Assembly: GCA_002779075.1 (NCBI GenBank)
Contig: PEXK01000029.1
Coordinates: 1 to 27,276, forward strand
Reading direction: 5' to 3'
From: Candidatus Diapherotrites archaeon CG08_land_8_20_14_0_20_30_16
Lineage (GTDB): Archaea; Iainarchaeota; Iainarchaeia; Iainarchaeales; 0-14-0-20-30-16
Length of the DNA: 27,276 bases
Every line of letters starts with the position of its first letter. The first letter of the stretch is position 1. Below the pieces are notes generated by a model. The model saw only the letters and a list, made by a program, of their open reading frames with translations, was not told the DNA's origin and made no database searches. Positions 418 through 23,505 of the stretch are shown in pieces. Position numbers and translations under genes: made by a program.

Positions 418-1425
418 GTGGGAAAAATAAATAAACCGAGAAGAGGTTCTACTGCTTACTATCCTAAAAAAAGGGCAGAAAGTATAGTCCCTAAGTTTAG
501 AAGCTTAGTAATGCCTAAGGACTCGCAAGATAAAGTTAAGGTGTTGAATTTTTATGGTTATAAGGTTGGTATGCTTCATGTTATGGGCCTAAATAAACAC
601 AAAGGTTCACCTTATCAGAACCAAAAAATAGCAATACCAGCAACTGTTTTAGAATTTCCATCAATTACTGTTTATGGTCTAAGATTTTACAATACTATCA
701 GAACAAAGAAAATTTGTTTGAAGGATTTTGTTTTTACATCAAAACTAAATAAACACATGCACAGAAGAATTACAGGAATAAACAGAGCTAAAGAAAAAGG
801 GGACCTTCTTAAAGGAATGATAGATTTTTTTGATGCTAATAAGCAAAATATAAAAGAAGTAGCATTAATTTGTCATACTCATCCTGAAAAAACAACAATA
901 GGAAAGAAAGCACCAGAAGTAATTGAGCTTTATCTTTCAGGCAAACCAGAAGAGCAATTGATATTTTTCAAAAATCAGTTAGGCAAAGACCTGGAGATTA
1001 ATGATTTTATTTCTGAAGGAACATTTGTTGATGCTAAAGGAATAACTATTGGAAAAGGATTCCAAGGTGTAATTAAAAGGTTTGGTGTCAAAAGAAGACA
1101 TCACAAATCTGAGAAAGGTGTTAGAAAAGTAGGTTCAATTGGTCCGTGGCATCCACCAACAATTATGAGCACTGTTCCAAGACCTGGACAATTAGGTTTT
1201 TTTAGCAGAGTGCAGTTAAATCAAAAGTTGTTAAAAGTATTAGATGCTGAACAAGCAAGTCCAAAACAAGGTTGGGAAGGTTATGGTGCAGTAAGGAACA
1301 AAGTAGCTTTGATTTCAGGATCAATTCCAGGACATGTTAAAAGGTTGGTTGCATTAAGACTGGCAATTAGAAAGCCTAAAGATATCAAAACAGATTTATC
1401 TGAAATAACAAATATTGTACTCTAA
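418..1425 (+). CDS. rpl3: 50S ribosomal protein uL3
   Basis: GTG start 5 nt after AGGTG. MGKINKPRRGS... N-terminus and FQGVIKRFGVKRRHHKSEKGVRKVGSIGPWHP core are typical of archaeal L3. Confidence 0.95.
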   Translation: MGKINKPRRGSTAYYPKKRAESIVPKFRSLVMPKDSQDKVKVLNFYGYKVGMLHVMGLNKHKGSPYQNQKIAIPATVLEFPSITVYGLRFYNTIRTKKICLKDFVFTSKLNKHMHRRITGINRAKEKGDLLKGMIDFFDANKQNIKEVALICHTHPEKTTIGKKAPEVIELYLSGKPEEQLIFFKNQLGKDLEINDFISEGTFVDAKGITIGKGFQGVIKRFGVKRRHHKSEKGVRKVGSIGPWHPPTIMSTVPRPGQLGFFSRVQLNQKLLKVLDAEQASPKQGWEGYGAVRNKVALISGSIPGHVKRLVALRLAIRKPKDIKTDLSEITNIVL

Positions 1426-1450
1426 ACAGTACAATTTATGTGTTAAAATT
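1422..1450 (+). repeat. Family B intergenic repeat, copy e (forward)
   Basis: CTAAACAGTACAATTTATGTGTTAAAATT. The rpl3 stop TAA (1423-1425) is the TAA of the motif core. A local hairpin ATTGTACT(1414-1421)/AGTACAAT(1428-1435) has loop CTAAAC. Confidence 0.5.
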
Positions 1451-1540
1451 ATATGTAGATTGTGCATTGGAAAATAGTATAATTTATATGTAAATATTAT
1501 ATTATAATTATATATTGAAAGAGATGTAAAAGGGATAAAA

Positions 1541-2347
1541 ATGGAAGTTAATATTTATAATTTAGAGGGTGCGGTTACATCAAAAACAAAATTGCCAAAA
1601 GTATTTGAAACACCTTATAGACCTAGAATTATTGAAAGAGCAGTATTGGCTGCAGAAAGTGCAAGAATCCAGCCAAAAGGGCCAAGTCATAGCAGTGGAA
1701 GAAATACAACAGCAGTTTATATTGGAAGAAGATCAAGACCAAATTCTTTAATGAATAAAGGAATTGCAAGAAAACCAAGAACAAAGAACAGACCACATTT
1801 AGTTGAAGGTACTGTTAAAGGAATTCCAGGAGTTGTTGGCGGTCCAAGAGCTCACCCTCCAAAACCAGGTGCTATTGCAAAAGAAGAAATAAATAAAAAG
1901 GAAAGAATATTAGCTTTGAAAAGTGCAATTGGTGCATTAACAAATAAAGAGTTGGTAGAAAAAAGAGGTCATAATTTTAATAAAGATTTGACTTTGCCAG
2001 TAGTTTGCGTTGAAGAGGTAGAAAAAATATCTAAAACAAAACAAGTCTTGTCCTTTTTGAAAAAATTGGGCTTAGATACTGATATTGAAAGAGCAAAAAA
2101 CAGAAAAAATATAAGAGCAGGAAAAGGTAAAGCAAGAAATAGAAAATATAAAAGAGCAAAATCAGTTTTGTTTGTAATATCAAAAGAAAAATTGCCACTA
2201 CAGAAAAGCGCAAGAAATCTAGAAGGCGTGGATGTTGTTGCATTAAAAAATTTGAGTACAAGAGATTTATGCCCCGGTGGAAGAGCAGCAAGATTAACAG
2301 TGTTTAGTAAAAGTGCAATTGAAAGCCTAGACAAAAGATTTAGTTAG
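1541..2347 (+). CDS. rpl4: 50S ribosomal protein uL4
   Basis: Position after rpl3. Archaeal L4-like sequence (RPRIIERAV..., GRRSRPNS..., IRAGKGKARNRKYK). Confidence 0.93.
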   Translation: MEVNIYNLEGAVTSKTKLPKVFETPYRPRIIERAVLAAESARIQPKGPSHSSGRNTTAVYIGRRSRPNSLMNKGIARKPRTKNRPHLVEGTVKGIPGVVGGPRAHPPKPGAIAKEEINKKERILALKSAIGALTNKELVEKRGHNFNKDLTLPVVCVEEVEKISKTKQVLSFLKKLGLDTDIERAKNRKNIRAGKGKARNRKYKRAKSVLFVISKEKLPLQKSARNLEGVDVVALKNLSTRDLCPGGRAARLTVFSKSAIESLDKRFS

Positions 2348-2386
2348 AGGAAAATTAGAAGTTTAGACATAAAGAAGGTTGAGAGA

Positions 2387-2641
2387 ATGGAACATACAAT
2401 ATTTTATCCTTTGATTTCAGAAAAAGCAGTAAGTATGGTTGAAACAGAAAACAAAATAATTTTTATAGTTAATCCAAAAGCAACAAAAGTGCAAGTAAAA
2501 AAAGCAATTGAAGAAACTTATAAAGTGAAAGTGGATAATGTAAATATTTTGGTGGATGCAAAAGGAAGAAAAAGAGCAATAGTTAAACTGAATAAACAGT
2601 TTAAAGCAAGCGAACTGTCAAGTAAGCTTGGCATGATATAA
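2387..2641 (+). CDS. rpl23: 50S ribosomal protein uL23
   Basis: 84 aa, IISPLxSEKA-like N-terminus (YPLISEKAVSMVE), conserved position between rpl4 and rpl2. Confidence 0.93.
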   Translation: MEHTIFYPLISEKAVSMVETENKIIFIVNPKATKVQVKKAIEETYKVKVDNVNILVDAKGRKRAIVKLNKQFKASELSSKLGMI

Positions 2642-2650
2642 GGTGTTAAA

Positions 2651-3370
2651 ATGAAAAGATTAAAGGTGCAGAGAAGAGGAAAAGGAAGTCCTAGATACAG
2701 GGCAAAGAGAGATTCTGTTGCAAGAGTAAAGTTTCCTTTTAATTATACTCAAAAAAAAGTTGTTGGTGAAATAGGTGCTATTTTGCATAATAACGGAAAG
2801 AGTAGTCCTTTAGCTAAAATTATTTTGGAAGATGGCAGTTTTTTTTATGTTCCTGCAGGTGAAGGAACTTATTTAGGTCAAAAAATAGAAATAGGAACAG
2901 GTTCAGCAGCAAATTTAGGAAATATTCTTCCTATAGGTGAATTATTTCCTGGTTTCCCAGCATATAATATAGAGAATATGCCTGGAGATGGTGGTTCTTT
3001 TTTTAGAGCTGCTGGTGCTTTTGGTGAAGTAATAGGCAAAGAAGCAAATATTGTTTATGTTAAAATGAAATCAGGGGAGAAGAAAAAAATAGATCCTAAA
3101 TGTTTTTGTATTGTTGGTGTTGTTGCTGGTGGTGGAAGAACAGTAAAACCATTTTGTAAAGCAGGCAACAAACATTTTTTAATGAAAGCAAGAGGTGGCA
3201 GAATATACCCAAGAGTAAGAGGTTATGCAATGAATGCAGTTGATCATCCTCATGGTGGTTCTGGTCACAATTCAGCAGGTAGACAAAAGGTAAAACCAAA
3301 GAAGTTTGGAGCACCTGGTCAAAAAGTTGGTTTTATTGGTGCTAAACGTACAGGCAGGAGAAAGAAATAA
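2651..3370 (+). CDS. rpl2: 50S ribosomal protein uL2
   Basis: NAVDHPHGGSGHNSAGR signature. SD GGTG 5 nt upstream of the ATG. Confidence 0.96.
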   Translation: MKRLKVQRRGKGSPRYRAKRDSVARVKFPFNYTQKKVVGEIGAILHNNGKSSPLAKIILEDGSFFYVPAGEGTYLGQKIEIGTGSAANLGNILPIGELFPGFPAYNIENMPGDGGSFFRAAGAFGEVIGKEANIVYVKMKSGEKKKIDPKCFCIVGVVAGGGRTVKPFCKAGNKHFLMKARGGRIYPRVRGYAMNAVDHPHGGSGHNSAGRQKVKPKKFGAPGQKVGFIGAKRTGRRKK

Positions 3371-3373
3371 TAA

Positions 3374-3411
3374 CCCATTAGACAGATAAATTTTGTGTGT
3401 TGCTAGGATGT
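3374..3411 (+). repeat. Family B intergenic repeat, copy a (forward); 5' arm of the long-range helix around rps19
   Basis: CCCATTAGACAGATAAATTTTGTGTGTTGCTAGGATGT begins 4 nt after the rpl2 stop. It is complementary to 3906-3943. Confidence 0.75.
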
Positions 3412-3420
3412 AAGTGAAAT

Positions 3421-3478
3421 TATGGTCCAGTTGCTAAATTTCTTTCAGAAAAATCAAGAAATTTACAACAGTTCCATA
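3421..3478 (+). repeat. Family A hairpin, copy 1 (decoy SD-ATG hairpin upstream of rps19)
   Basis: TATGG(3421-25)/CCATA(3474-78) foot, A29/A70 mismatch, and a 12-bp A/T helix 3430-3442/3458-3469 with one bulged C. Preceded by GTGAAATTATGGT, which resembles the real rps19 RBS GTGATATTTATGGT (3494-3507). Confidence 0.75.
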
Positions 3479-3502
3479 AAATAAAAAACAGATGTGATAT
3501 TT

Positions 3503-3898: not shown

Positions 3899-3905
3899 AA
3901 GAAAA

Positions 3906-3943
3906 GTATCCTAGCAACATATAAAATTATGCTGTCTAGTGTG
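3906..3943 (-). repeat. Family B intergenic repeat, copy a' (inverted); 3' arm of the long-range helix around rps19
   Basis: Its reverse complement reads CACACTAGACAGCATAATTTTATATGTTGCTAGGATAC, about 30/38 identical to copy a. It begins 8 nt after the rps19 stop. Confidence 0.75.
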
Positions 3944-3957
3944 ATAATGGTGAAATA

Positions 3958-4611
3958 ATGAAACAAGCATATTATAAATTAAAAGGGAATGATGCTATTG
4001 CAAGAATGTATAATTGTCCAATTTCTTTGAAATTTTCAATAGAGTTAGCAAGGGAAATAAAAAGCAAGCCATACAAAAAAATATTGATATATTTAGAAGA
4101 TATAATTAATTTGAAAAGACAACTTCCACTAAAAAGATATAATCAGAATGTGGGGCATAGAAAAGGACCAAGTATTTCTGGTGTGAAATCAGGAAGATTT
4201 CCTGTAAAGGTTGCAAAACAATTTAAAAAAGTTTTGGAAATGGCAAAATCAAATGCAGATTACAAAGGATTAGAATCTGAGAAAAAGGATTTGATAATTA
4301 AGGGTTGTGTTGTTTCTCAGGGAATGAAAAGATATTCTTTCCAAACAAAAGGTAAAAGACGTTTGAGAAGAGATCAAACAACAAGCTTAGAAATTGTTTT
4401 AGTTCAACAAGGTAAATTTGTAAAGAAAATAGAACCTAAGAAAGAAGAGATCAAAAAAGAAGAAAAGAAAGAAGAAAAAAAGCAAGAGGCAGAAAAATTA
4501 GAATTAAAAGAAGAAAAAGATTCTAAACAAGAAGCCAAATTGACACAAAAAGAACAAATTGAAGAACAGAAAAAAATATTAAATAGAGAGAGACAGAAAA
4601 GACATGAATAA
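3958..4611 (+). CDS. rpl22: 50S ribosomal protein uL22 with a Lys/Glu-rich C-terminal extension
   Basis: Archaeal L22 core (ISLKFSIELAREIK..., GRFPVKVAKQFKKVLEMAKSNA). SD GGTGA lies 4 nt upstream. The last roughly 70 aa are K/E low complexity. Confidence 0.93.
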   Translation: MKQAYYKLKGNDAIARMYNCPISLKFSIELAREIKSKPYKKILIYLEDIINLKRQLPLKRYNQNVGHRKGPSISGVKSGRFPVKVAKQFKKVLEMAKSNADYKGLESEKKDLIIKGCVVSQGMKRYSFQTKGKRRLRRDQTTSLEIVLVQQGKFVKKIEPKKEEIKKEEKKEEKKQEAEKLELKEEKDSKQEAKLTQKEQIEEQKKILNRERQKRHE

Positions 4612-4630
4612 TAGTTAAATAGTGATATTA

Positions 4631-5596
4631 ATGATAGAAAAATATTTTGTTAAACAAGCAATCAAAAAATTAGATTTAGAGAGATTCTTTGAAAAGCATT
4701 TTGCAAGAGCAGGATTTAATTCATTGTATATTGTGAAAACACCAGTATCTACTAGATTAGTTGTTAGCGTTGCAAGACCAGGTATTGCAATTGGATATAG
4801 CGGAAAAGCAATTAAAGGAATAGGCCAAATTGTCGAAGAGAAGTTTGGAATAAAAAATCCACATATTGAAATAAAAAGTGTTGAAGATCCAGAATATAAT
4901 GTAAAATATATTGTACAAACAATAGTAAATGATTTGGAAAAAGGTATTAATTGGAAACAAGTGGCATACAAAGCAGTAAAAAGTCTTTCTGATATGCCAA
5001 TTATGGGTTTTGAATTGATATTTAAAGGAAAAATGATGTCTAAAGGTGGTAGAAAACAAAAGTATAGATTTGTTTCTGGATATTTGAAAGCCATAGGTGA
5101 CCAAACTAAATTGGTTAAGCAAACAATGGCTGCAGCATATACTAAATCAGGAGCAATTGGTGTTAGATTGAGATTAGTTCCTCCAAATACTTTGTTTCCA
5201 GATAAAATAGGCGAAAAAGAAATTTCTAATGCAATTAAAGGCGATGTTAAAAAGATTATTATTGAAGATCTAACACAAAAAGAACCAGAAAAAGAATCAG
5301 AGAAAGAATTAGAGAAAAAAGAAAAAGTTGTTGAATACAAACCAGAGGAATCAAAGAAAGAGGAAAAAAAGAAACCTAAAAAAGAAGAAAAAGTTGTTGA
5401 ACCTGAAAAAGAAGTTTCAAAAGAGAAAAAACAAGAAGTAATAAAAGAAAAAATTGTTGAACATAAAAAAGAAACTAAAGAAGAAAAAAAGGAAGAACCT
5501 AAAAAGGAAGAAAAGAAAGAAAACAAAGCAGAAACAAAATCAATAAAGAAGGATGAATCTTTACAGAAAGATGTCAAAACGATTGCAAAAAAGTGA
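4631..5596 (+). CDS. rps3: 30S ribosomal protein uS3 with a long Lys/Glu-rich C-terminal extension
   Basis: KH-domain S3 core (VKTPVSTRLVVSVARPGIAIGYSGKAIK...). ATG 4631 follows GTGAT (4622-4626). The last roughly 110-120 aa are a K/E-rich tail. Confidence 0.94.
   Translation: MIEKYFVKQAIKKLDLERFFEKHFARAGFNSLYIVKTPVSTRLVVSVARPGIAIGYSGKAIKGIGQIVEEKFGIKNPHIEIKSVEDPEYNVKYIVQTIVNDLEKGINWKQVAYKAVKSLSDMPIMGFELIFKGKMMSKGGRKQKYRFVSGYLKAIGDQTKLVKQTMAAAYTKSGAIGVRLRLVPPNTLFPDKIGEKEISNAIKGDVKKIIIEDLTQKEPEKESEKELEKKEKVVEYKPEESKKEEKKKPKKEEKVVEPEKEVSKEKKQEVIKEKIVEHKKETKEEKKEEPKKEEKKENKAETKSIKKDESLQKDVKTIAKK
5321..5461 (+). repeat. Degenerate in-frame tandem repeat inside the rps3 tail
   Basis: GAAAAAGTTGTTGAA at 5321 and 5387, and GAAAAAATTGTTGAA at 5447 (periods 66 and 60 nt). 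These encode the EKVVE/EKIVE peptide repeats. Confidence 0.7.
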
Positions 5597-5602
5597 TTAT
5601 AG

Positions 5603-5953: not shown

Positions 5954-5971
5954 AGGGGGATTTGAAGAACC

Positions 5972-6527: not shown

Positions 6528-6563
6528 ATGGAATGAAAATAAGGACGAATTTAGGTGAAAGAG

Positions 6564-6830: not shown

Positions 6831-6845
6831 AGATTAGGTGAAATG

Positions 6846-7244: not shown

Positions 7245-7272
7245 AATTACCCAATGAATTTGATGTGATATT

Positions 7273-7327
7273 TATGGTCCAGTTGTAAATTTCCTCAGAA
7301 AAATCAGAAATTTACAACAGTTTCATA
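7273..7327 (+). repeat. Family A hairpin, copy 2 (upstream of rpl24)
   Basis: TATGG(7273-77)/TCATA(7323-27) foot, A81/A19 mismatch, perfect 11-bp helix TTGTAAATTTC(7283-93)/GAAATTTACAA(7307-17), loop CTCAGAAAAATCA. Flanked by a perfect 17-nt direct repeat at 7260-7276 and 7333-7349. Confidence 0.8.
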
Positions 7328-7346
7328 AATAATTGATGTGATATTT

Positions 7347-9026: not shown

Positions 9027-9036
9027 TGGTGATTTT

Positions 9037-9171
9037 GTGAAAGATGATAAAAAACAGGTGTGCAAGTTTTGTGGTAATGGAAGAGCAGTTATCAGAAAAT
9101 ATGGGCTATACTTGTGTAAACTATGCTTCAAGGATCGTGCAAGAGAATTAGGATTCGAGAAGCTGGAATGA
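9037..9171 (+). CDS. rps14: 30S ribosomal protein uS14 (short zinc-type), 44 aa, GTG start
   Basis: Absent from the ORF track (under 60 aa). GGTGAT(9028-33)+TTT+GTG. Translation MKDDKKQVCKFCGNGRAVIRKYGLYLCKLCFKDRARELGFEKLE* has the CxxC...CxxC S14 pattern and sits between rpl5 and rps8. Confidence 0.85.
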   Translation: MKDDKKQVCKFCGNGRAVIRKYGLYLCKLCFKDRARELGFEKLE

Positions 9172-9180
9172 GGTGAACTT

Positions 9181-9570: not shown

Positions 9571-9571
9571 A

Positions 9572-9612
9572 CACTAAACAATGTATTGGAAAAATAATTT
9601 TTGTATGTTTCG
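9572..9612 (+). repeat. Family B intergenic repeat, copy f (forward, with a longer internal spacer)
   Basis: CACTAAACAATG...AATTTTTGTATGTTTCG. The rps8 stop TAG (9568-70) lies in a preceding CTAGACA that is tandem to CTAAACA. Confidence 0.4.
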
Positions 9613-11038: not shown

Positions 11039-11524
11039 ATGACAGTATATCAAAGAAGAAGAGAAATGAAAACAAATTATGAAAAGAGATTGGCATTATT
11101 GAAATCTGGTAAAAATAGAGTTGTTGTAAGACTGTCAAATTTATACTTACATCTTTTGTATATAGAACATAACCCAAAAGGAGATATTACAAAGTTTTCT
11201 TTAACTTCAAAATCTTTAAAAAGTTTCTGTTGGCCTAAAGGCTATAGATCTTTACCAGCATGTTATTTAGCAGGGTTTTTATTTGGCAAAGAAGTAATAA
11301 AAAGAAAACTGGGAATAGAAGCAGTTCTAGATTTGGGTTTGCAAAATGCTTTTAAAAAAGGTAGATTATTTGCAGGTGTTAAAGGTATGATCGATAGCGG
11401 TTTGAAAATTCCTGCAAGTTCAGAGGCTTTCCCACCAGAAGATCGATTGAAAGGAAAACATAATAAAACTGAGCAGTTATTTAATACAGTAAAAAGTACT
11501 ATAGATGCTAAATTTGCACATTAA
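11039..11524 (+). CDS. rpl18: 50S ribosomal protein uL18
   Basis: RRREMKTNYEKRLALLKSGKNRVVVRLSN... is an archaeal L18 N-terminus. SD GTGATATTTT precedes the ATG. Confidence 0.92.
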   Translation: MTVYQRRREMKTNYEKRLALLKSGKNRVVVRLSNLYLHLLYIEHNPKGDITKFSLTSKSLKSFCWPKGYRSLPACYLAGFLFGKEVIKRKLGIEAVLDLGLQNAFKKGRLFAGVKGMIDSGLKIPASSEAFPPEDRLKGKHNKTEQLFNTVKSTIDAKFAH

Positions 11525-11550
11525 AGAAGATTATATGTTGGTGATATTTT

Positions 11551-12300
11551 ATGGCAGAGAAATTTAAGCAGGCAATGAGAAAAAGTCAGAGAAGAATAGA
11601 ATATGCAAAAGCACCAGCTGTTAAAGTAGATGATAAAGAAGCAATAGTTGAAGCAGTGCATAGAAAAAGAGTTAAGAAACTTCTTTTTGGCGAGAATATT
11701 GGAGATTGGCTGCCAAAAACAGAATTAGGAAAGAAAGTAAAAGCAGGAGAAATAAAAGATTTGAACGAAATTTTTGATAAAAATCTAAAAATTATGGAAC
11801 CAGAAATTGTTGATTTTTTTATAAAAGAAATAAAAGAAAAATTAATGGATACAACAAAAACATCTTATGTAAGAATGGCTGGTCGTAAATACGGTTACAG
11901 ATGTGCAGTTTTAATTGGCGATGGTTCTAGTTTTTTGGGTTTTGGAATTGCAAAAGACAAAGATAAATGGACTTCTGCAGGTAAAGCTGCAAGAATGGCA
12001 AGATTGAATTTAATAAGAGCAAAAAGAGGTTGCGGTAGTTGGGAATGTACTTGTGGTACAGGACATTCAGTTCCTTTTAATGTTAGTGGGAAAACAGGAG
12101 CATCAAGAATTACTTTAATGCCGGCCCCTTTGGGTACTGGTTTGGTTGCAACAGAAGTTGTAAAACCAGTGTTAGAGTTTGTAGGAATTAGTGATATTTG
12201 GTCAAGAACAAGCGGTGAAACATCAACAAAAATAAATATTATTCAAGCAACAATAGATGCTTTGAAAAGTACATTCAGAAAGGAGAAAACATCCCATTAA
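11551..12300 (+). CDS. rps5: 30S ribosomal protein uS5
   Basis: VRMAGRKYGYRCAVLIGDG..., ITLMPAPLGTGLVA. SD GGTGAT. Confidence 0.94.
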   Translation: MAEKFKQAMRKSQRRIEYAKAPAVKVDDKEAIVEAVHRKRVKKLLFGENIGDWLPKTELGKKVKAGEIKDLNEIFDKNLKIMEPEIVDFFIKEIKEKLMDTTKTSYVRMAGRKYGYRCAVLIGDGSSFLGFGIAKDKDKWTSAGKAARMARLNLIRAKRGCGSWECTCGTGHSVPFNVSGKTGASRITLMPAPLGTGLVATEVVKPVLEFVGISDIWSRTSGETSTKINIIQATIDALKSTFRKEKTSH

Positions 12301-12316
12301 ACAGACAAACGTTATG
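12293..12316 (+). repeat. Family B intergenic repeat, copy g (forward, 5' part only)
   Basis: CCCATTAAACAGACAAACGTTATG is 20/24 identical to copy a (CCCATTAGACAGATAAATTTTGTG). The rps5 stop TAA (12298-12300) is the TAA of the motif core. Confidence 0.5.
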
Positions 12317-12335
12317 CAAGATGTGAGGAATATTT

Positions 12336-12798: not shown

Positions 12799-13218
12799 AT
12801 GAGCGTGCGTAGAGCTAAGAAATTAAAGAAAAGATTAGGGGCTGGAAGAACAAGAGGCGCAGGAAATACTGAAAACAGAAGAGGTGCCGGCTCAAAAGGT
12901 GGAAAAGGATTAACAGGCAAGTTCGGACACAAGAAACAGCTGTTTTTTCATTTAATTGGTACAAAAATAAAAAATAAACCAGTAACATTTATAAATTCTA
13001 TAACCTTTAATGAAATAAACGAATATATTTACAAACAATTAAAAACAAAGAAATTAGCTGAGCCAGTATTACTTGATTTTTCAGAGGATAAATTTTTACA
13101 AAAATATAATAAAATTGTTTCTAAAGGTAAATTGAACTACAAAGTATCTGTTAAGAATGTTGCTTTGACAGAAAGAGCAAAAAAAGAGATTGTTTCAAAA
13201 GGGGGTTTAATTGAATGA
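12799..13218 (+). CDS. rpl15: 50S ribosomal protein uL15
   Basis: Gly/Arg-rich N-terminus (GAGRTRGAGNTENRRGAGSKGGKG). Position between rpl30 and secY. Confidence 0.92.
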   Translation: MSVRRAKKLKKRLGAGRTRGAGNTENRRGAGSKGGKGLTGKFGHKKQLFFHLIGTKIKNKPVTFINSITFNEINEYIYKQLKTKKLAEPVLLDFSEDKFLQKYNKIVSKGKLNYKVSVKNVALTERAKKEIVSKGGLIE

Positions 13219-14622: not shown

Positions 14623-14656
14623 ACACTAGACATGCCAATTTTATGTATGGCTATGG
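14623..14656 (+). repeat. Family B intergenic repeat, copy b (forward)
   Basis: ACACTAGACATGCCAATTTTATGTATGGCTATGG begins 2 nt after the secY stop. Confidence 0.65.
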
Positions 14657-14765
14657 TGTATTAAAAGATATTTTTGTATGTTGTGAAGGTGTATTTTTTA
14701 GTGTTATAGCCAATACAAAATCAACATATAAAACAAACATATATATGCTGTATAGTGTGATAGAA

Positions 14766-15215
14766 ATGGATTATGTGCCAGCTTTGATTGTAGGAGTTAT
14801 TTCAATTTTGTATTCTGCATTTTTATTTTCATATCAAAGATATTTGGATAAAAAAAATAACACAAAAGAAAAAAATGTAAAAATGAAAGAGATACAAGCA
14901 AAGATTTCTGATAATTACAAAACAAAGGATGCAAAAGATCCTGCAGTAGCAGAGGAAAACTCAAAATTGCAAAAAGAAATGATGTCTATAAGTATGGGCA
15001 TGATGAAAACACAATTCAAAAGTATGCTTTGGATAATGCTTTTAGGTTTAGTTGTTTTGTATGCTGTTAATCTTTTCAGATATGGCGGTTTTCCAATTGG
15101 TGGTTTTTGGGTATTCTCAAATGTTATAACTTGGTTTATTTTAATATCTTTGGCAGCAAACATAATCTACAAAATAATATTTTCACAATTAGATAAAAGA
15201 AATATGTTGAATTAA
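14766..15215 (+). CDS. DUF106/EMC3-TMCO1-like membrane protein (archaeal YidC/Oxa1-like insertase homolog)
   Basis: TM-coiled K/E loop-TM-TM layout (MDYVPALIVGVISILYSAF...KEIQAKISDNYK...MMKTQFKSMLWIMLL...). Canonical slot between secY/adk and rpl34e/cmk. ATG 14766 is 4 nt after GTGAT. The 41 upstream codons from 14643 overlap the repeat and are probably leader. Confidence 0.75.
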   Translation: MDYVPALIVGVISILYSAFLFSYQRYLDKKNNTKEKNVKMKEIQAKISDNYKTKDAKDPAVAEENSKLQKEMMSISMGMMKTQFKSMLWIMLLGLVVLYAVNLFRYGGFPIGGFWVFSNVITWFILISLAANIIYKIIFSQLDKRNMLN

Positions 15216-15223
15216 CAGCAAAT

Positions 15224-15253
15224 CAACACATAAAAAATATACTGTCTAGAGGG
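15224..15253 (-). repeat. Family B intergenic repeat, copy b' (inverted)
   Basis: Its reverse complement reads CCCTCTAGACAGTATATTTTTTATGTGTTG. It begins 9 nt after the DUF106 stop and directly abuts family A copy 3. Confidence 0.65.
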
Positions 15254-15308
15254 ATGTTTATGGCCAGTTATAATTTTCTCAATAAATCAAAAATTATAAC
15301 AGATCCCT
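15250..15308 (+). repeat. Family A hairpin, copy 3 (upstream of rpl34e)
   Basis: Perfect 11-bp helix GTTATAATTTT(15267-77)/AAAATTATAAC(15290-300), A66/A01 mismatch, C65-G02 pair, outer helix AGGGAT(15250-55)/ATCCCT(15303-08). Flanked by GAGGGATGTTTATGG (15249-63) versus the real RBS GAGGTGATTTTTATGG (15320-35). Confidence 0.7.
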
Positions 15309-15331
15309 AAAAATTAAAAGAGGTGATTTTT

Positions 15332-15661
15332 ATGGTAGCACCGGGAAAAAGAAATTTAAAGAAAAAATTTGTAAGAACAGTAAAAAGTACAAAAGAATAC
15401 AGATTTAGAGAAAAACCTAAAGGAGCATATTGTGCATTGTGCAACAAGAAGTTGCAGGGAGTGCCTAGAGGCGATTTAAGGAAATTGTCAAAAACAGAGA
15501 AAAGGCCAAGTGTTTTGTTTGGTGGAATTCTGTGCTCAGATTGCAGGGATTCTTGCTTTGACGATGCAATTATGTTAAAGACAGGACTGATCAAGGATTC
15601 TGATGTGTCTTTTAGCAAGAAACACTACGTAAAAGAAGCAGTAGCTAAGATACAAATATAA
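15332..15661 (+). CDS. rpl34e: 50S ribosomal protein eL34
   Basis: RTVKSTKEYRFREKPKGAYCALCNKKLQGVPR...CSDCR is L34e-like with a zinc ribbon. ATG 15332 follows GGTGATTTTT. Confidence 0.9.
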   Translation: MVAPGKRNLKKKFVRTVKSTKEYRFREKPKGAYCALCNKKLQGVPRGDLRKLSKTEKRPSVLFGGILCSDCRDSCFDDAIMLKTGLIKDSDVSFSKKHYVKEAVAKIQI

Positions 15662-15789
15662 ATAACATATATCAATATTATATATTGCTTCTAGCAAAGA
15701 TTATCAGTACGGGTAATCTAAAGATTGTTTTTTGGCTGACGTATAACCTTTTATTGAGGTTGCCAAACTTTTGTTTGTTAGTGATATTT

Positions 15790-16239: not shown

Positions 16240-16240
16240 T

Positions 16241-16334
16241 ACATTAAACATGTAAATTTTATGTACTGCTAGGTTGTAAATTTCAACACATAATCAATCT
16301 ATAAAATTGATGTATAAATGTACTGTTTAGTGGG
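16241..16334 (+). repeat. Family B repeat, copies c and c' arranged as one self-contained imperfect palindrome (no gene enclosed)
   Basis: CATTAAACA(16242-50) pairs with TGTTTAGTG(16324-32), 9 bp including one G-U. Pairing continues imperfectly inward (GTA/TAC, ATTT/AAAT, AT/AT). An apical mini-hairpin is GTTG-TAAATTT-CAAC (16273-87). Begins 2 nt after the cmk-like stop. Confidence 0.65.
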
Positions 16335-16351
16335 CTGAAAAAGGGGATAAT

Positions 16352-17190: not shown

Positions 17191-17202
17191 AGGTGACTAT
17201 TT

Positions 17203-17865: not shown

Positions 17866-17876
17866 GGTGTTTTTTT

Positions 17877-18260: not shown

Positions 18261-18298
18261 ATGTAAACAAATTTGTGAAATGTATTTTGGGTGAAAGA

Positions 18299-19069: not shown

Positions 19070-19128
19070 ATGCTTTTGCATTTAATGTTTATTTTGGGAA
19101 AGCATTACAATTTGCGAGCTTTAAATAG

Positions 19129-19154
19129 GTATGTTTGAGTGAAACGAAACATAC
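19129..19154 (+). other. Hairpin in the rpoD-tRNA spacer
   Basis: GTATGTTT(19129-36)/AAACATAC(19147-54), 8 bp, loop GAGTGAAACG. Confidence 0.5.
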
Positions 19155-19302
19155 TGAGCATGAACCGAGTGTTGTAAAGGCTTTTGACTTGCAACAAAGT
19201 GTATAAGATTCTGTACGAAGCGTACTTAATCATCTACACATTTTGCGGTTGTGTTATCGAGAGTATTATTGAGCAACTTGTTGCGAAGATAGTAGAAAGC
19301 GT

Positions 19303-19320
19303 CAACCGATTTTTCGGTTG
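19303..19320 (+). other. Hairpin 2 nt upstream of the tRNA 5' end
   Basis: CAACCGA(19303-09)/TCGGTTG(19314-20), 7 bp, TTTT loop. Confidence 0.55.
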
Positions 19321-19322
19321 TT

Positions 19323-19457
19323 GCAGGGGTTCCGGAGTGGTCAAACGGGCAGGGCTTAAGACAACCCTTTTCCGCTCACGCGCAAAAGCGTTGATGGAAA
19401 AGAAGTAAGAAACCCTGTAGCTTAGTGCTTTCGAGAGTTCGAGTCTCTCCCCCTGCA
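19323..19457 (+). tRNA. tRNA-Leu (anticodon UAA) with a 51-nt canonical-position intron
   Basis: Acceptor GCAGGGG/CCCCTGC plus discriminator A. Anticodon stem CAGGG(19350-54)/CCCTG(19413-17). Loop CTTAAG|A with TAA at 19357-59. Long variable arm TAGCTTAGTGCTTTC (class II). T arm GAGAG-TTCGAGT-CTCTC. No encoded CCA. Confidence 0.9.
19361..19411 (+). other. tRNA intron (position 37/38) with a bulge-helix-bulge splice motif
   Basis: Central 4-bp helix CTTA(19355-58)/TAAG(19406-09) is flanked by 3-nt bulges AG|A (5' site) and AA|A (3' site). Inner intron helix is CTTTTCC/GGAAAAG. Confidence 0.8.
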
Positions 19458-19490
19458 TCAATATGGCTCACGAAGTGAGAGCTATTGATG
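19456..19490 (+). ncRNA. Twin hairpin H1 (overlaps the last 2 nt of the tRNA)
   Basis: CATCAATA-TGG-CTCAC-GAA-GTGAG-AGC-TATTGATG: 8-bp outer stem, 3x3 internal loop TGG/AGC, 5-bp inner stem, GAA loop. Confidence 0.55.
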
Positions 19491-19512
19491 TATTTGAACG
19501 AAAGTGAGAATG

Positions 19513-19547
19513 CATTCAAATGGCTTTCGAAGAAAGAGCTTTGAATG
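19513..19547 (+). ncRNA. Twin hairpin H2 (paralog of H1)
   Basis: CATTCAAA-TGG-CTTTC-GAA-GAAAG-AGC-TTTGAATG has the same architecture as H1. Both stems differ in sequence but remain complementary. Confidence 0.55.
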
Positions 19548-19554
19548 ACTTTGG

Positions 19555-19577
19555 ATTAAATCCCAGTAGGATTTAAT
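19555..19577 (+). other. Perfect 9-bp hairpin
   Basis: ATTAAATCC(19555-63)/GGATTTAAT(19569-77), loop CAGTA. Confidence 0.5.
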
Positions 19578-19587
19578 GAAATGGCAT

Positions 19588-19612
19588 CTGTTTTCTTTTT
19601 TAAAGAAAACAG
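19588..19612 (+). terminator. Perfect 11-bp hairpin with an internal T-run (possible terminator of the tRNA/ncRNA unit)
   Basis: CTGTTTTCTTT(19588-98)/AAAGAAAACAG(19602-12), TTT loop. The T6 run at 19596-19601 spans the end of the 5' arm and the loop. Confidence 0.4.
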
Positions 19613-19686
19613 GACCCCCACAGATAACACCAATGCTTGCGAGCAAAAGGGGTTTGAAACAAATATTATATTTATGAGGGATAGAA

Positions 19687-20052: not shown

Positions 20053-20078
20053 ATTAAATATGCAAATAGGTGATATTT

Positions 20079-20546
20079 ATGGTTGTTAAAACAAAGATGC
20101 AAAAAAAGACAAAGAAATTAAAAGAAAATGAAAAAATAGAGAATTATGATGCTAGTGGGTTGGTTTACGGAAGACTTGCCAGCATGTTGGCACAAAAATT
20201 GCTTGCAGGTTATAAAATAAATGTTTACAATGCAGAAAAGGTAGTAATAACAGGAAATCCAAAATGTGTTGTAACTGAATATTCAAAAAGATATGATTAT
20301 AGAGCAAAGGGAAATCCTGAGAAAGGACCCAAATATCCTAAGGTGCCACATTTGATGCTTAAATTAGCAGTAATTAAAATGTTGCCGAAAGGTGCAAGAG
20401 GAAAAGCACTTGCAAAAAATATTAAAGTGTATATTGGAAATGAAAATAAAGTGGATATTAAAAGTATAAGTTTAGCAAAGATGATGCAAGGTTTGAAATT
20501 TATAGAGTTAGGAGAATTGTGTAATAGATTGGGTGCTAAATGGTGA
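20079..20546 (+). CDS. rpl13: 50S ribosomal protein uL13
   Basis: YDASGLVYGRLASMLAQKLLAGYKINVYNAEKVVITGN is an L13 signature. ATG 20079 follows GGTGATATTT. Confidence 0.94.
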   Translation: MVVKTKMQKKTKKLKENEKIENYDASGLVYGRLASMLAQKLLAGYKINVYNAEKVVITGNPKCVVTEYSKRYDYRAKGNPEKGPKYPKVPHLMLKLAVIKMLPKGARGKALAKNIKVYIGNENKVDIKSISLAKMMQGLKFIELGELCNRLGAKW

Positions 20547-20550
20547 TTAT

Positions 20551-20603
20551 TATGGCCCAGTTATTATTTTTTCCTCAAAAAGAAAAATAATAACAGGTTC
20601 ATA
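20551..20603 (+). repeat. Family A hairpin, copy 4 (upstream of rps9)
   Basis: TATGG(20551-55)/TCATA(20599-603) foot, A59/A95 mismatch, 12-bp helix GTTATTATTTTT(20560-71)/AAAAATAATAAC(20583-94). Flanked by a perfect 14-nt direct repeat GTGATTATTATGGC at 20543-56 and 20613-26. Confidence 0.8.
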
Positions 20604-20621
20604 AAAAAGGAAGTGATTATT

Positions 20622-21206
20622 ATGGCTTTTGATAGAGAAAAAAGGTTTGAAAGATTTGGAAGAAGACCAGAAAAAGATTTTGAGCATAAAAGTTTCAATA
20701 AGTCTGAGGAGCAGACAATAGTGCCAAAAGAAAAACCAAAATTAGTAAAAATGCCAAAATCTTTGACTAGACCAGTAACTAGTAAAACAAAAAAGGGGAA
20801 AGTATTACAGGTAACAAGTAAAAGAAAAAGTGCAGTAGCAAGAGCAACTGTCAGATCAGGAAAAGGACGTATCATAATAAATAAAAAGCCGTATACCGCT
20901 ATTTCAAATAGATTTATTCTAGATCTTGTTAGAGAGCCACTTGTGATTGTTGAAAAACACAATAAAGATTTATTGGGTAAAGTGGATATTAATATTTTAG
21001 TAAATGGCGGTGGGGTTATGGGACAAATGCAAGCAGTAAGAAACTGCATTGCAAAAGCATTTGTTCAGTATTTTGATGATTTAGAGTTGACAAGAGAGTT
21101 TTTGGAATACGATAGATCATTTTTGGTTGATGATGTTAGACGTGTTGAATCCAAAAAACCTTTGGGACCAAAAGCAAGAGCTAAGAAACAACACAGTAAG
21201 AGATAA
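20622..21206 (+). CDS. rps9: 30S ribosomal protein uS9 with a roughly 60-aa basic N-terminal extension
   Basis: S9 core (VLQVTSKRKSAVARATVRSGKGRIIINKKP ... KKPLGPKARAKKQHSKR). ATG 20622 follows GTGATTATT. Confidence 0.93.
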   Translation: MAFDREKRFERFGRRPEKDFEHKSFNKSEEQTIVPKEKPKLVKMPKSLTRPVTSKTKKGKVLQVTSKRKSAVARATVRSGKGRIIINKKPYTAISNRFILDLVREPLVIVEKHNKDLLGKVDINILVNGGGVMGQMQAVRNCIAKAFVQYFDDLELTREFLEYDRSFLVDDVRRVESKKPLGPKARAKKQHSKR

Positions 21207-21218
21207 TGGGGTGGTTTT

Positions 21219-21413
21219 TTGTTAATACCTGTTAGATGTTTTAGTTGTGGTTTTCCTGTAGCAGAATATTATGAAACATACAAAGATTTGCTGTCTAAAG
21301 GGAAAAGTCAGAAAGATTCTTTGGACGGTTTGAACATAAAAAGATACTGTTGCAGGAGAATGATGATTTCAAACTATGATTACGTTTATGACAATTTGAA
21401 ATATCAGAAGTGA
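21219..21413 (+). CDS. rpoN: DNA-directed RNA polymerase subunit N (Rpo10)
   Basis: (M)LIPVRCFSCGFPVAEYYETY...KRYCCRRMMISN is an RpoN/Rpb10 signature. TTG start after GGGGTGG. Confidence 0.92.
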   Translation: MLIPVRCFSCGFPVAEYYETYKDLLSKGKSQKDSLDGLNIKRYCCRRMMISNYDYVYDNLKYQK

Positions 21414-21436
21414 GGATCTCATAAAAAGTGATATTT

Positions 21437-22621
21437 ATGTTTGATATAATCAAGTTTTTTGATAGCAGAGGGACACCAACAATTTGTGCTTACACAAAGT
21501 GCAAATCAGATATCATAACTAGTGTTGCACCTGCAGGAAAAAGCACAGGGTCACATGAAGTATTGACATATCCTATAATAAAAGGCATCCCAAATATAGG
21601 GCAGAGTTTTAAATTTTTCAAGCAAAATAAAAAATCAATTGAGCAGGCATTTGCTTTTGAAGAGCAAGAAGAATTTGATTCTTTTTTGGAAGAATTAGAT
21701 GAGACCCCAAATTTTTCTGATATGGGTGGAAATTTAGCAATTGCTTTGTCAATGCTTTTCTTGAAGGTTAAAGCAAAAGAACAAAATAAACAAGTATTTG
21801 AATATTTAAATCCAAAACCAAAATTAAATGATTTGCCAAAACCTTTAGGAAATTGTTTTGGCGGTGGCCTCCACTCAAATAATAAGATTCCTGTTCAGGA
21901 ATTTTTAGTCTTGCACAATAAGAAACTAATAAGTGATAATGTTAAACTGAATATTGATGTTTACAAAGCAATTGAAAAGGATTTGCATAAAAGAAAAATA
22001 TTTTTTGGTAAAAATGATGAAGGCGCAATAACTGCAAATATTACATTTAATGATGCAATAAATTTAGTTGAAGATGCAATTGATAAATTAGGCGAAAAAT
22101 CAAAATATGGTTTAGATGTTGCAGCAAGCTCATTCTATGCTAAGGGTAAATATGAATTTGAAAATAAAAAATATTCTGAAAAAGAATTTATATCTTTTTG
22201 GAATGATTTTTTGAAAAAACACAAAGATGTAGTGTATGTTGAAGATCCGTTCTTTGAAGATTCTTTTGATGCGTTTGCAGAACTGCAAAAGAAAACAAAG
22301 GCATTGATTTGCGGTGATGATTTGTATACTACAAATAAAGACAGATTTACTATAGGGGTAAAAAAGAAATCAACAAAAGCAATTTTGATAAAACCAAATC
22401 AAATTGGAACATTATCAAGAATGTATGAAACAGTTAAATTAGCACAAAAGAACGATATCGATTGTGTTATATCACACAGATCTGGAGAAACAAGTGATAA
22501 TACAATTGCACATTTAGCAGTAGGATTAAAAGGAATAAAATATATCAAAACAGGAACAATCTCTGGCGAGAGATTAGCAAAGTTAAATGAGCTTATATTG
22601 ATAGAGAAACTTATAAGCTAA
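21437..22621 (+). CDS. eno: Enolase (divergent, about 394 aa)
   Basis: DSRGTPT, AGKSTGSHE, VQEFLVL, DVAASSFY, VEDPFFEDSF, GDDLYTTN, LIKPNQIGT, SHRSGETSDNTIAHLAVGL and IKTG...ERLAKLNELILIE line up with enolase catalytic and metal-binding motifs. Canonical rpoN-eno-rps2 slot. Confidence 0.9.
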   Translation: MFDIIKFFDSRGTPTICAYTKCKSDIITSVAPAGKSTGSHEVLTYPIIKGIPNIGQSFKFFKQNKKSIEQAFAFEEQEEFDSFLEELDETPNFSDMGGNLAIALSMLFLKVKAKEQNKQVFEYLNPKPKLNDLPKPLGNCFGGGLHSNNKIPVQEFLVLHNKKLISDNVKLNIDVYKAIEKDLHKRKIFFGKNDEGAITANITFNDAINLVEDAIDKLGEKSKYGLDVAASSFYAKGKYEFENKKYSEKEFISFWNDFLKKHKDVVYVEDPFFEDSFDAFAELQKKTKALICGDDLYTTNKDRFTIGVKKKSTKAILIKPNQIGTLSRMYETVKLAQKNDIDCVISHRSGETSDNTIAHLAVGLKGIKYIKTGTISGERLAKLNELILIEKLIS

Positions 22622-22632
22622 TTTAACATATA

Positions 22633-22667
22633 CCTCAGAAGCTCTCCTATTCGGAGCCATTCCGAGG
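22633..22667 (+). terminator. Hairpin downstream of eno (unit 1)
   Basis: CCTC.GAA.GCTC...GAGC.TTC.GAGG, an imperfect stem-loop 12 nt after the eno stop. Confidence 0.45.
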
Positions 22668-22718
22668 CTAAACTAAATGAGCTTATATTAATTGAAAGTT
22701 TACTTAAGTAAACATATA

Positions 22719-22752
22719 TCTTGAAAGATCATCTTAGGATGTCATTCCAAGA
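22719..22752 (+). terminator. Hairpin downstream of eno (unit 2, paralog)
   Basis: TCTTG.AA..CATC-TTAG-GATG..TT.CAAGA. The outer stem differs from unit 1 by paired C-to-T and G-to-A changes. Confidence 0.45.
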
Positions 22753-22797
22753 CAAAAATTGATAAAATGATGTAGAAAAATAGAGAGAGGTATTTTT

Positions 22798-23466
22798 ATG
22801 AGTAAAGAATTGTTGGTGACTCCAGAAGAATATTTGAAATCAGGTATTCATATTGGTACAAGATATAAAACAAAAGGAATGAGAAAATTTATTTTCAAAC
22901 TAAGAAAAGATGGTTTGAAAGTGTTTTCTATTGAAACAATAGATGATAGAGTTAGATATCTTGCAAAATTTCTTGCAAATTATGATGCTGATAAAATTGC
23001 GGTTGTTGGAAGAAGGATTTTTGCACAAACTGCAGTAGAACATTTTTGTAAAATAATAAGTGCCAAGCCTTATATTGGGCGGTTTATTCCAGGAAAATTT
23101 ACAAATCCAAAGATTAAAGGTTTTTTTGAGCCACAGTTGATTTTTGTTATTGAATCTAACTTAGATAAACAAGTAATATGCGAGGCACAAAAAATTAATG
23201 TTCCTGTTGTTTCTTTGAGCAGTGCAAATAATAGTTTAACAAATATAGATTTTACTTTACCATGTAACAACAAAGGCAAAAAAAGTTTAGCATTGATATT
23301 CTGGCTTTTGACAAGAGAATATCAATTTGCAAAAGGAATAATAAAATCCAGAGATGATTTCAAACATAAAGCAGAAGAATTTGAATTTAGCGGTAAAGAA
23401 AAAATAATCAAAAAGGAAGAGGACCGAAGAGGTAGAAGACCATTCAGAGGCCGTAGAAAATATTAA
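22798..23466 (+). CDS. rps2: 30S ribosomal protein uS2
   Basis: EEYLKSGIHIGTRYKTKGMRKFIFKLRKDGLKVFSIE and IGRFIPGKFTNP are archaeal S2-like. Confidence 0.93.
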   Translation: MSKELLVTPEEYLKSGIHIGTRYKTKGMRKFIFKLRKDGLKVFSIETIDDRVRYLAKFLANYDADKIAVVGRRIFAQTAVEHFCKIISAKPYIGRFIPGKFTNPKIKGFFEPQLIFVIESNLDKQVICEAQKINVPVVSLSSANNSLTNIDFTLPCNNKGKKSLALIFWLLTREYQFAKGIIKSRDDFKHKAEEFEFSGKEKIIKKEEDRRGRRPFRGRRKY

Positions 23467-23471
23467 CTCTG

Positions 23472-23505
23472 CACATTAGACAGGACCATTTTATGTGTTA
23501 ATTTT
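23472..23505 (+). repeat. Family B intergenic repeat, copy d (forward)
   Basis: CACATTAGACAGGACCATTTTATGTGTTAATTTT begins 6 nt after the rps2 stop. Its 3' part (TTTATGTGTTAAWWTT) matches copy e. Confidence 0.6.

Follow-up and report, generated by a model that had tools for sequence, protein, structure and literature searches.

A stop-codon-associated two-block repeat in the ribosomal-protein superoperon of a Diapherotrites archaeon, with likeness to REP/BIME elements

The short spacers of the ribosomal-protein superoperon of Candidatus Diapherotrites archaeon CG08_land_8_20_14_0_20_30_16, a member of the DPANN archaea, harbor a family of interspersed repeats, hereafter family B, built on the two-block motif CAYTARACAK-N3-AATTTTATRTRYTG with a unit of ~35-45 bp (33-45 bp for single units). 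The window considered throughout is the whole stretch analysed, positions 1-27,276 of the forward strand of contig PEXK01000029.1 (GCA_002779075.1), in which all genes are encoded on the plus strand, GC content is 30%, and 2824 of the 27,276 bases (10%) are non-coding. Family B units are lineage-restricted insertions, indifferent to orientation at the DNA level, that supply stop codons to the genes upstream of them. The family may well be an element of the repetitive extragenic palindrome (REP)/bacterial interspersed mosaic element (BIME) kind or a mini-MITE (miniature inverted-repeat transposable element), possibly with side effects as a portable promoter.

Fourteen copies were aligned, 11 from the window and three from other contigs, representing at least four lineages. 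Block 1 reads (A/C)CAYTARACAK, its C, TA and ACA columns being invariant across the 14 copies, and is separated by three unconstrained bases (N3) from block 2, A-ATTTTATRTRYTG. From one end to the other, a unit comprises a YTAR tag (CTAG, TTAA, TTAG or CTAA) with CA in front, ACAK, N3, a central A/T box AATTTTAT, RTRYTG and, in the fuller copies, an inverted tag CTAGG-TG(TA); the GTAG/CGTC tag of bacterial REPs was not found. Imperfect terminal repeats of 6-12 nt (CAYTAR…YTAGG-TG) are seen in copies c2, c3, c6 and c8 of the window (listed below) and in the outside copy L046a, and are absent or degenerate in c1, c5, c10 and the outside copies L035 and L058.

Scanning the window with position-weight matrices (block 1 ACAYTARACAK, block 2 ATTTTATRTRYTG, gap of 2-22 nt) recovers 10 two-block copies, against a mean of 0.055 expected and a maximum of one in 200 runs of first-order Markov simulation, a contrast that is somewhat inflated because the matrix was built from the copies themselves. 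The first bases of block 1 lie at 1419, 3375, 9571, 14623, 16241 and 23473 (forward) and at 3942, 14758, 15252 and 16333 (inverted). A stricter consensus, taken from an original prediction made on the letters of this DNA, gives three matches with up to three mismatches, against none expected. Beyond the ten matrix copies, one to three degenerate ones can be recognised, including that at 12294, whose block 1 is strong and block 2 degenerate; family B then counts seven forward and four inverted copies in the window, all of them within non-coding bases or overlapping a stop codon. The original prediction had announced at least ten copies, extragenic and falling into sub-types (…TGCTAGG versus …GTGTTAAWWTT), and on each of these points it agrees with the present results, the ten copies that it listed being present where it placed them. 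Its three inverted copies are likewise real, but it missed a fourth, at 14716-14758, concealed by an over-called open reading frame (ORF) downstream of SecY.

The gene order is L3-L4-L23-L2-S19-L22-S3-L29-SUI1-Rpp29-S17-L14-L24-S4e-L5-S14-S8-L6-L32e-L19e-L18-S5-L30-L15-SecY, followed by EMC3/DUF106-like-L34e-Cmk-L14e-S13-S4-S11-RpoD-[tRNA gap]-L18e-L13-S9-RpoN-enolase-S2-aminoacyl-tRNA synthetase (aaRS). Along it, the copies and candidate copies are placed as follows:

c1: 1419-1472, plus strand; sub-type GTGTTAAAATT; the L3 stop codon (1423-1425) is the TAR of the motif.
c2: 3375-3412, plus strand; sub-type GTTGCTAGGATGTA; 2 nt past the double stop of L2; block scores 17.9/17.1.
c3: 3906-3942, minus strand; inverted copy between S19 and L22, with CTAG on both sides; highest block scores of the family (18.8/18.5).
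c4: 9571-9612, plus strand; 1 nt past the S8 stop; 16-nt gap between the blocks.
Degenerate candidate: 11517-11545, plus strand; at the L18 stop, CAC ATT→CAT TAA (His-stop), then AGAAGATTATATGTTGGTGAT; below the matrix threshold.
c5: 12294-12323, plus strand; the S5 stop is the TAR of the motif (CCCATTAAACAG); block 1 score 16.7, block 2 degenerate.
c6: 14623-14660, plus strand; 2 nt past the SecY stop; palindrome with an 11-bp stem, TTAATACACTAG…CTATGGTGTATTAA.
c11: 14716-14758, minus strand; inverted copy with block 2 duplicated, just upstream of the true EMC3-like start (~14766); pairs with c6 (D12).
c7: 15212-15252, minus strand; inverted copy between EMC3-like and L34e, its far end overlapping the EMC3 stop (AATTAACAG); block scores 17.6/16.7.
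c8: 16241-16278, plus strand; 2 nt past the Cmk stop (CATTAA-TA-CATTAAACATG).
c9: 16284-16333, minus strand; inverted copy with block 2 duplicated, tail-to-tail with c8 (BIME-like pair), upstream of L14e; block scores 18.4/11.6.
c10: 23473-23571, plus strand; sub-type GTGTTAATTTT; 7 nt past the S2 stop; block scores 17.0/17.3.
Degenerate candidate: 26445-26490, plus strand; 3 nt past the aaRS stop, CAACTAGCAA…TTTTTTATGTTATTAT; three strain-level single-nucleotide polymorphisms (SNPs).

Units are found as tail-to-tail pairs (c6/c11, ~55 nt apart; c8/c9, adjacent), in tandem at the outside locus L046, as a pair in neighbouring spacers (c2/c3), and otherwise singly, with composites spanning 95-145 bp. 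No inverted repeat in the window is longer than the c2/c3 pair (39 nt, 79%; 498 nt apart), which brackets rps19. Copy c2 is followed by a relic Shine-Dalgarno (SD) sequence and ATG and then by a hairpin of another repeat, family A, which also comes after c7. A second TATA-like repeat unit lies beyond c1 (1480-1520, D7), and c10 carries two such units of ~44 nt in common with the L3-L4 spacer (D7, D19). The one strain SNP in c6 falls in N3 (14635). Elsewhere, a strong block 1 match (CCTTTAGACAG, score 15.9) beside a weak block 2-like sequence lies on the minus strand within RpoN (21275-21305); it is the sole high-scoring intragenic match and probably due to chance.

The same operon was fetched from the relatives L005, L006, L008, L010, L012 and L130 (SecY 70-84% identical), and a second locus was added from the relative L135, for a total of 119 kb in seven relatives. 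Homologues of SecY bear names such as Candidatus Diapherotrites and Iainarchaeum. No two-block copy occurs in these 119 kb. The orthologous junctions of all seven are empty of units, in a comparison that is between species only (~75% nucleotide identity in coding DNA), and in L005, L008 and L130 most of the junctions that hold family B in the window measure 0-18 nt, that is, a stop codon, an SD and an ATG. The absence of copies from relatives, together with such short spacers at matching junctions, indicates that the units are lineage-specific insertions.

Where these insertions lie is closely tied to the end of the preceding gene. Forward copies begin 0-7 nt from its stop codon, in line with the original prediction: the stops of L3 and S5 are the motif's own TAR, the distance from stop to CAY is 1 nt for S8, 2 nt for SecY and Cmk, and 7 nt for S2, and for L2 it is 5 nt from the first stop and 2 nt from a second, in-frame TAA. 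That prediction had also read the stop of rps8 as the TAR of the motif, which holds for rpl3 and rps5 but not for rps8, whose stop plays no part in the listed copy CACTAAACAAT: the TAG belongs to a second, overlapping partial core TTCTAGACA. Four proteins of the window (L18, S5, SecY and Cmk) end in His-stop (CAT TAA), an ending that none of their orthologues shares and that is also present beside the outside copies L035 and L123; SecY and Cmk have a doubled tag (CATTAA-TA-CAYTAR-ACAT). As the four endings are restricted to this species, the unit must have replaced or added the last codon and the stop, and units thereby alter how conserved proteins end at the C-terminus. With spacers as tiny as those of this lineage, a position next to the stop is in part unavoidable. 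The adjacency nevertheless holds where there is room: in the 3' untranslated region (UTR) of a small zf_Tbcl gene, only 2 nt separate the unit from the stop, in a place where a relative has 24 nt of spacer. Copies are extragenic and confined to co-directional or convergent spacers, and each of the three divergent spacers of contig L131 is free of them.

Inverted copies score 15.7-18.8 for block 1 and 11.6-18.5 for block 2, on par with the forward ones, and this equal conservation points to a feature of the DNA, against a sense-RNA signal or a strictly directional one.

Units can also mislead gene callers. The EMC3/DUF106-like ORF is over-called by 41 codons (14643-14765), at 190 aa versus 149-158 aa in every relative; it starts at an ATG inside block 2 and runs in frame across c6 and c11. 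The N-terminus MD(F/Y)VPALI of the relatives places the true start near 14766, and the extension is probably an annotation artefact created by the repeat. This gene had been predicted to encode an adenylate kinase, wrongly, since its product is an EMC3/DUF106-like membrane protein.

In all, ~53 kb of distinct DNA from this species was examined, the ribosomal cluster included (~63 kb fetched, with overlaps). The window itself matches a 52.7-kb ENA metagenome contig, as well as shorter contigs from JGI and Logan, at 99.9% identity. In L046, L131 and L132 (same species), two tandem units (~90 nt) start 2 nt past the stop of the small zf_Tbcl gene and are followed, in L046/L131, by a terminator hairpin, TTGGGGnAACCCAA, with a T-run (T8), beyond which the next gene is convergent. 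The relative L135 (72%) has in this place the stop, 24 nt, and then the kept hairpin TTGGGGCAACCCAA with its T-run, and no unit. With a separate terminator and a convergent neighbour, the unit at zf_Tbcl is neither the terminator nor the promoter of a gene. No further copies were found in the 9.2 kb past the window, nor in the rest of L131/L132 (~14 kb), which, for the DNA covered, leaves family B concentrated in the ribosomal cluster. L035, a contig from the same samples, carries a unit 2 nt past the stop of a membrane-protein gene ending in His-stop.

A metagenome scan with a 23-nt pattern gave at least 93 distinct matches, mostly unrelated singles; among the matches listed, 11 lie beside the end of an ORF and about six are useful loci. 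These include single copies, in DPANN-like contigs, 2-6 nt past the stop of aIF5A (L058, with a convergent neighbour and a T-rich terminator behind the unit) and of MCM (L102, with CTAA at both sides). A stricter 27-nt pattern, scanned over 596 Gb of GTDB species-representative genomes, among which this species is not included, has exactly one match, in a Diapherotrites metagenome-assembled genome: a HIT gene, once more with a His-stop ending, terminates there at the TAA of CATTAAACAG, and TTAA-TTGGTGATAAT-GTG follows, with the SD and GTG of the next gene. Six single matches in viral contigs are all unrelated. ORFs beside outside copies encode aIF5A, Nudix, MCM, methyltransferase, HIT and PD-(D/E)XK nuclease proteins. 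Judged from these occurrences, the motif is old and confined to this archaeal group; its placement is patchy, and a single species has multiplied it.

How could such units spread? We infer that a sequence-specific DNA enzyme would recognise both conserved blocks and place units at or next to YTAR tetranucleotides. With spacers of 5-18 nt, YTAR would mostly consist of a stop codon and its preceding base, and the tag would then replace or double that stop; on this mechanism, forward copies come to abut or contain stops and several upstream proteins to end in His-stop. Because the unit is nearly symmetrical, its A/T box would lie 26-30 nt before the next start in either orientation, which could make it a portable weak promoter.

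REP copy number is typically more than 100 genome-wide, and to our knowledge REP repeats are not established in archaea, REPs and domesticated transposases being regarded as bacterial. In bacteria, GTAG-tagged REPs are found downstream of ORFs, in spacers whose flanking ORFs are unidirectional or convergent; inverted pairs are frequent, and a stop codon is often provided by the tag (PMC3733652). Family B resembles these REPs, the BIMEs and the REPINs in its unit size of 30-45 bp, its terminal tetranucleotide tag followed by an imperfect palindrome, its extragenic location downstream of ORFs, its occurrence as singles and inverted pairs, its species specificity and its stop-supplying tag (PMC3733652; PMC2817692; PMC3116915). 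The differences are also clear: bacterial elements are GTAG/CGTC-tagged and mobilised by RAYTs (REP-associated tyrosine transposases), whereas family B is archaeal, YTAR-tagged and very AT-rich, with weak stems, a conserved part that includes the loop AATTTTAT, and an apparently low density outside the operon. The REP/BIME analogy proposed by the original prediction finds support in the placement of the copies (extragenic, both orientations, inverted pairs), in the stop-supplying tag and in the absence from relatives, and lacks the canonical tag, a covariation-backed hairpin and, within the ~53 kb of same-species DNA, a RAYT; it is the best available description, membership in the class not being established since the tag differs and the hairpin is unproven.

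Other small elements offer partial parallels. The Correia elements of Neisseria (Correia repeat enclosed elements, CREE; Neisseria miniature insertion sequences, NEMIS) and promoter-carrying MITEs (for a general MITE review, see PMC10969869) are likewise small palindromic non-coding insertions beside genes, with TA-type flanks and promoter-like boxes. Correia elements differ in their 100-155 bp length, 26-bp terminal inverted repeats and integration host factor (IHF) site, against 35-45 bp and at most 10-12 bp of imperfect terminal repeats in family B. They are co-transcribed with genes and their insertion can create transcription starts; we know of no RNase III-type processing context in this archaeon. 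The archaeal MITEs of Sulfolobus (SM1-SM4, derived from IS630 or IS5) are similarly non-autonomous and located in spacers, yet family B is half the size of the smallest one described and its flanks are mostly palindromic. Transposition of IS5-group or IS630-group insertion sequences (IS) leaves YTAR or TA at both ends, and the YTAR/TA flanks would fit a mini-MITE of IS5 or IS630 type equally well; we know of no parent IS of family B. Two further candidates were rejected: a TnpB of IS200/IS605 type for the 400-aa ORF beside the L046 copies, which is a PD-(D/E)XK/Cas4-like nuclease conserved in relatives, and a piggyBac-like resemblance (TTAA + CCC…), whose flanks are inconsistent.

Several observations weigh against a mobile element of the REP/BIME or mini-MITE kind. 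There is no presence/absence polymorphism between strains that are 99.9% identical, and the copies number 11-13 in the 23-kb ribosomal cluster versus two loci in ~26 kb elsewhere. No transposase (RAYT, IS200/IS605, IS5, IS630 or other) was found in the ~53 kb of same-species DNA, nor any transposase-like Pfam family among the called genes of L001, L014, L131 and L132. The candidate target duplications are short and mostly palindromic, so that duplication and inverted repeat are ambiguous: CTAA/CTAA in L102 is the sole informative direct repeat, CTAG/CTAG in c3 and TTAA/TTAA in L123 are palindromic and uninformative, TA…TA surrounds c6, c8 and L046a, and other copies mismatch. The units are also shorter than typical MITEs, which usually measure 50-500 bp, a range that only the composites reach.

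The structural evidence is equally reserved. The consensus is an imperfect palindrome, CAY-TAR-ACAG-NNN-A / T-NNN-YTG-CTAG-G-TG, in which 63% of cells pair, versus 28-43% with slid partners and 61% in column shuffles (61 of 500 shuffles reach the observed value); covariation in the 14-copy alignment is not above shuffles, and only about half of the copies form the middle pairs. Single-unit folds have z-scores of -0.9 to +1.3 relative to shuffles, except for the region of block 2 in c1 (z = -4.2), the only strongly stable hairpin of the family. Copies c3, c6, c11, L046a and L058 fold as hairpins and others do not, with registers that differ between copies, and the hairpin is unproven. An apparent covariation of N3 (CAT/ATG, GCC/GGC, GTA/TAC, TAT/ATA, ATC/GAT) was dropped, as the formal count shows no excess over shuffles and the registers differ. 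Finally, saturated N3 bases beside near-invariant blocks are less suggestive of a recent burst of copies than of purifying selection acting in place on a functional site. This pattern has one of two explanations: either the units are under selection where they stand, in which case a host function (a promoter or a protein-binding site, for instance) is favoured, or a dedicated recombinase continues to recognise them, as in REPIN-RAYT systems.

The first of these leads to a host cis-regulatory module, a possible though rather doubtful alternative, in which block 2 would be a B recognition element (BRE)/TATA box and block 1 an upstream factor site, the copies serving as promoters within the long operon, perhaps as part of a regulon of the translation apparatus, and dividing it into units that begin at or close to the next ATG. 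In genuine promoter-bearing spacers of the species, TTTAAATA/TTTATATA begins 27-31 nt ahead of a leaderless ATG; two of these spacers are 29-30 nt long, co-directional and directly past a stop. As in archaeal BRE/TATA leaderless promoters, family B has an A/T octamer after AA, the latter fitting a BRE-like purine stretch, and in about half of the copies (c2, c4, c5, c7, c11 and L123) the box lies 26-30 nt before a real or relic ATG, the geometry of the organism's own spacers. The conserved blocks around a free N3 resemble a protein-contacted site, and the copies are concentrated in the ribosomal cluster (11 in 23 kb, against the two loci elsewhere). However, the distance from box to ATG is too great in c1, c6, c8, c9 and c10 (60-120 nt in c1, c6, c8 and c10) and only 19 nt in L102; at L046/L131 and L058, the downstream gene is convergent, outside promoter geometry, with nothing to promote. 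Four well-conserved copies point away from or antisense to genes, orthologous junctions in the seven relatives have none, and the boxes of the window are G-rich (TTTTATGTGT), making poor TATA boxes. In addition, an SD is still present downstream, and a symmetric 40-bp unit placed between a stop and an SD automatically yields a box-to-ATG spacing of 26-30 nt. The original prediction had kept a terminator/promoter composite in reserve: the spacing lends it support in about half of the copies, and the separate terminators at zf_Tbcl and L058 speak against it. Promoter activity is possible, yet it cannot explain the distribution of the family; if the units were promoters, they would define, for a lineage of uncultured archaea, an upstream promoter element that is unusually explicit.

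A bolder, speculative proposal, on balance unlikely, joins family B with family A as "punctuation-targeting" mobile elements of streamlined DPANN genomes, able to invade a ribosomal superoperon without breaking its expression. Family B would integrate at the YTAR of a stop codon, rebuild the stop from its own tag and bring a TATA-like box at the leaderless-promoter distance, while family A would insert right after a start codon and duplicate 12-20 nt with SD and ATG. If this were true, family B would be the first REP-like system (tagged palindromic repeat plus dedicated recombinase) in Archaea. Apart from this proposal, an archaeal analogue with a different tag would widen the bacterial-only picture of REPs. 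It would also provide a handle on how selfish or semi-domesticated DNA, bringing along a stop codon and perhaps a promoter as well, survives in compact DPANN genomes.

Family A consists of a hairpin, CAGTTG-stem-loop-stem-CAACAG, with a tail NTNCATAAAAT. It occurs in the window at 3421-3480, 7270-7330, 15258-15316 and 20552-20612, and elsewhere in L014 (19900-19982), L131 (5655-5878), L035 (990-1040), L006 (seven copies), L012 (five) and L010 (one). Without exception it sits immediately past a start codon, and behind it the local SD, spacer and ATG (12-20 nt) are repeated, as in AAGGAGGAATGATTATGCCA in L014, GTGATTATTATGGC before S9 and TGATGTGATATTTATG before L24; stem sequences vary from copy to copy, and the changes compensate each other. 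In contrast to family B, it occurs widely in the relatives, where it occupies different junctions. Its features suggest either a palindromic element that targets start codons and makes unusually long target duplications or a translational leader, and it may be more unusual than family B. In L010 and L012, many junctions have AT-rich spacers of 27-39 nt (in L010, for example, 439-471, 868-897, 4071-4106, 5246-5284, 9076-9107 and 12880-12918) that resemble tandem duplications of the SD-spacer region (…GATATTTAAGTTGAAGTGATATTTTatg) and may be footprints of excised family A elements or the result of independent spacer growth.

Returning to family B, a role at the RNA level in 3' UTRs or intercistronic regions is improbable. 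Bacterial REPs are reported to have such roles, and hairpins or long-range pairing would here stabilise mRNA, direct transcript processing, or tune termination and translation re-initiation. Forward copies begin at a stop and are certainly transcribed, the c2/c3 duplex brackets rps19, fold-back is conceivable for c6/c11 and c8/c9, stable hairpins form in c1 and c6, and some stems show G·U-compatible changes. Against this stand the lack of covariation, the unremarkable z-scores of most units and the shifting hairpin registers described above, as well as the equal conservation of inverted copies, whose complementary RNA would contain C·A mismatches. Rfam 15 gives no match in the window at gathering scores or even at E ≤ 1. 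A bulge-helix-bulge or circular RNA around rps19 was considered for the c2/c3 duplex and rejected, its internal loop being symmetric (3x3) and not made of staggered bulges.

It is very unlikely that the units are transcription terminators or attenuators whose T4-T6 run tunes subunit stoichiometry. A T-run does lie 15-20 nt past the stop in every unit, and the S2-aaRS unit sits where L005 has a long T-rich terminator and a promoter; but separate terminators stand behind the units at zf_Tbcl (conserved hairpin and T8) and L058 (T-runs), inverted copies give A-runs in the transcript, T4 is a weak signal, and relatives do without any such signal at these junctions. A chance resemblance among AT-rich spacers, or low-complexity sequence, which the 30% GC genome and the weak listed copies c4 and c5 might suggest, is refuted by the excess over simulation, the columns invariant in 14 copies of at least four lineages and the absence of matches in relatives of the same composition.

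Other features of the window concern RNA genes and annotation. A tRNA-Leu(UAA) gene (19396-19530, in the RpoD-L18e gap at 19070-19686) is split by an insertion of ~49 nt directly after the anticodon loop (…CTTAAGAC|AACCCTTTTCCGC…GTAAGAAA|CCCTGTAGC…); it is reported neither by ARAGORN, which finds no tRNA in the window, nor by Rfam, and the relatives L005, L006 and L012 have an intron-less tRNA-Leu gene in the same place. On its 3' side (19530-19660), several short hairpin-forming repeats (GCTCACGAAGTGAGAGC, GGCTTTCGAAGAAAGAGCT) are found, and L005 has in this place (15434-15600) two direct repeats of ~70 nt with CGATGAG/…CTG… boxes; they may be C/D-box or other small RNA genes. The L34e-Cmk spacer (15662-15789; ~115-128 nt) is conserved in sequence in all relatives (L005 12197-12312, L006 12384-12498, L010 12285-12411, L012 12387-12510). 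It contains …TATATATA…, a stem TTATGAGTGCACATAAC and …TTTTTGGYTA…GGGCCAAACT…, has no Rfam match, and, as no other long spacer is retained throughout, probably represents a structured leader or a gene for a small RNA.

The L5-S8 'spacer' (9036-9176) encodes a small zinc-ribbon S14 (~46 aa, CxxC…CxxC) that is uncalled in the gene table of the source contig. L22 (217 aa) and S3 (321 aa) have long Lys/Glu-rich low-complexity C-terminal extensions (4400-4600 and 5260-5590), which are the source of most of the direct-repeat families (D1-D5) reported by the repeat finder.

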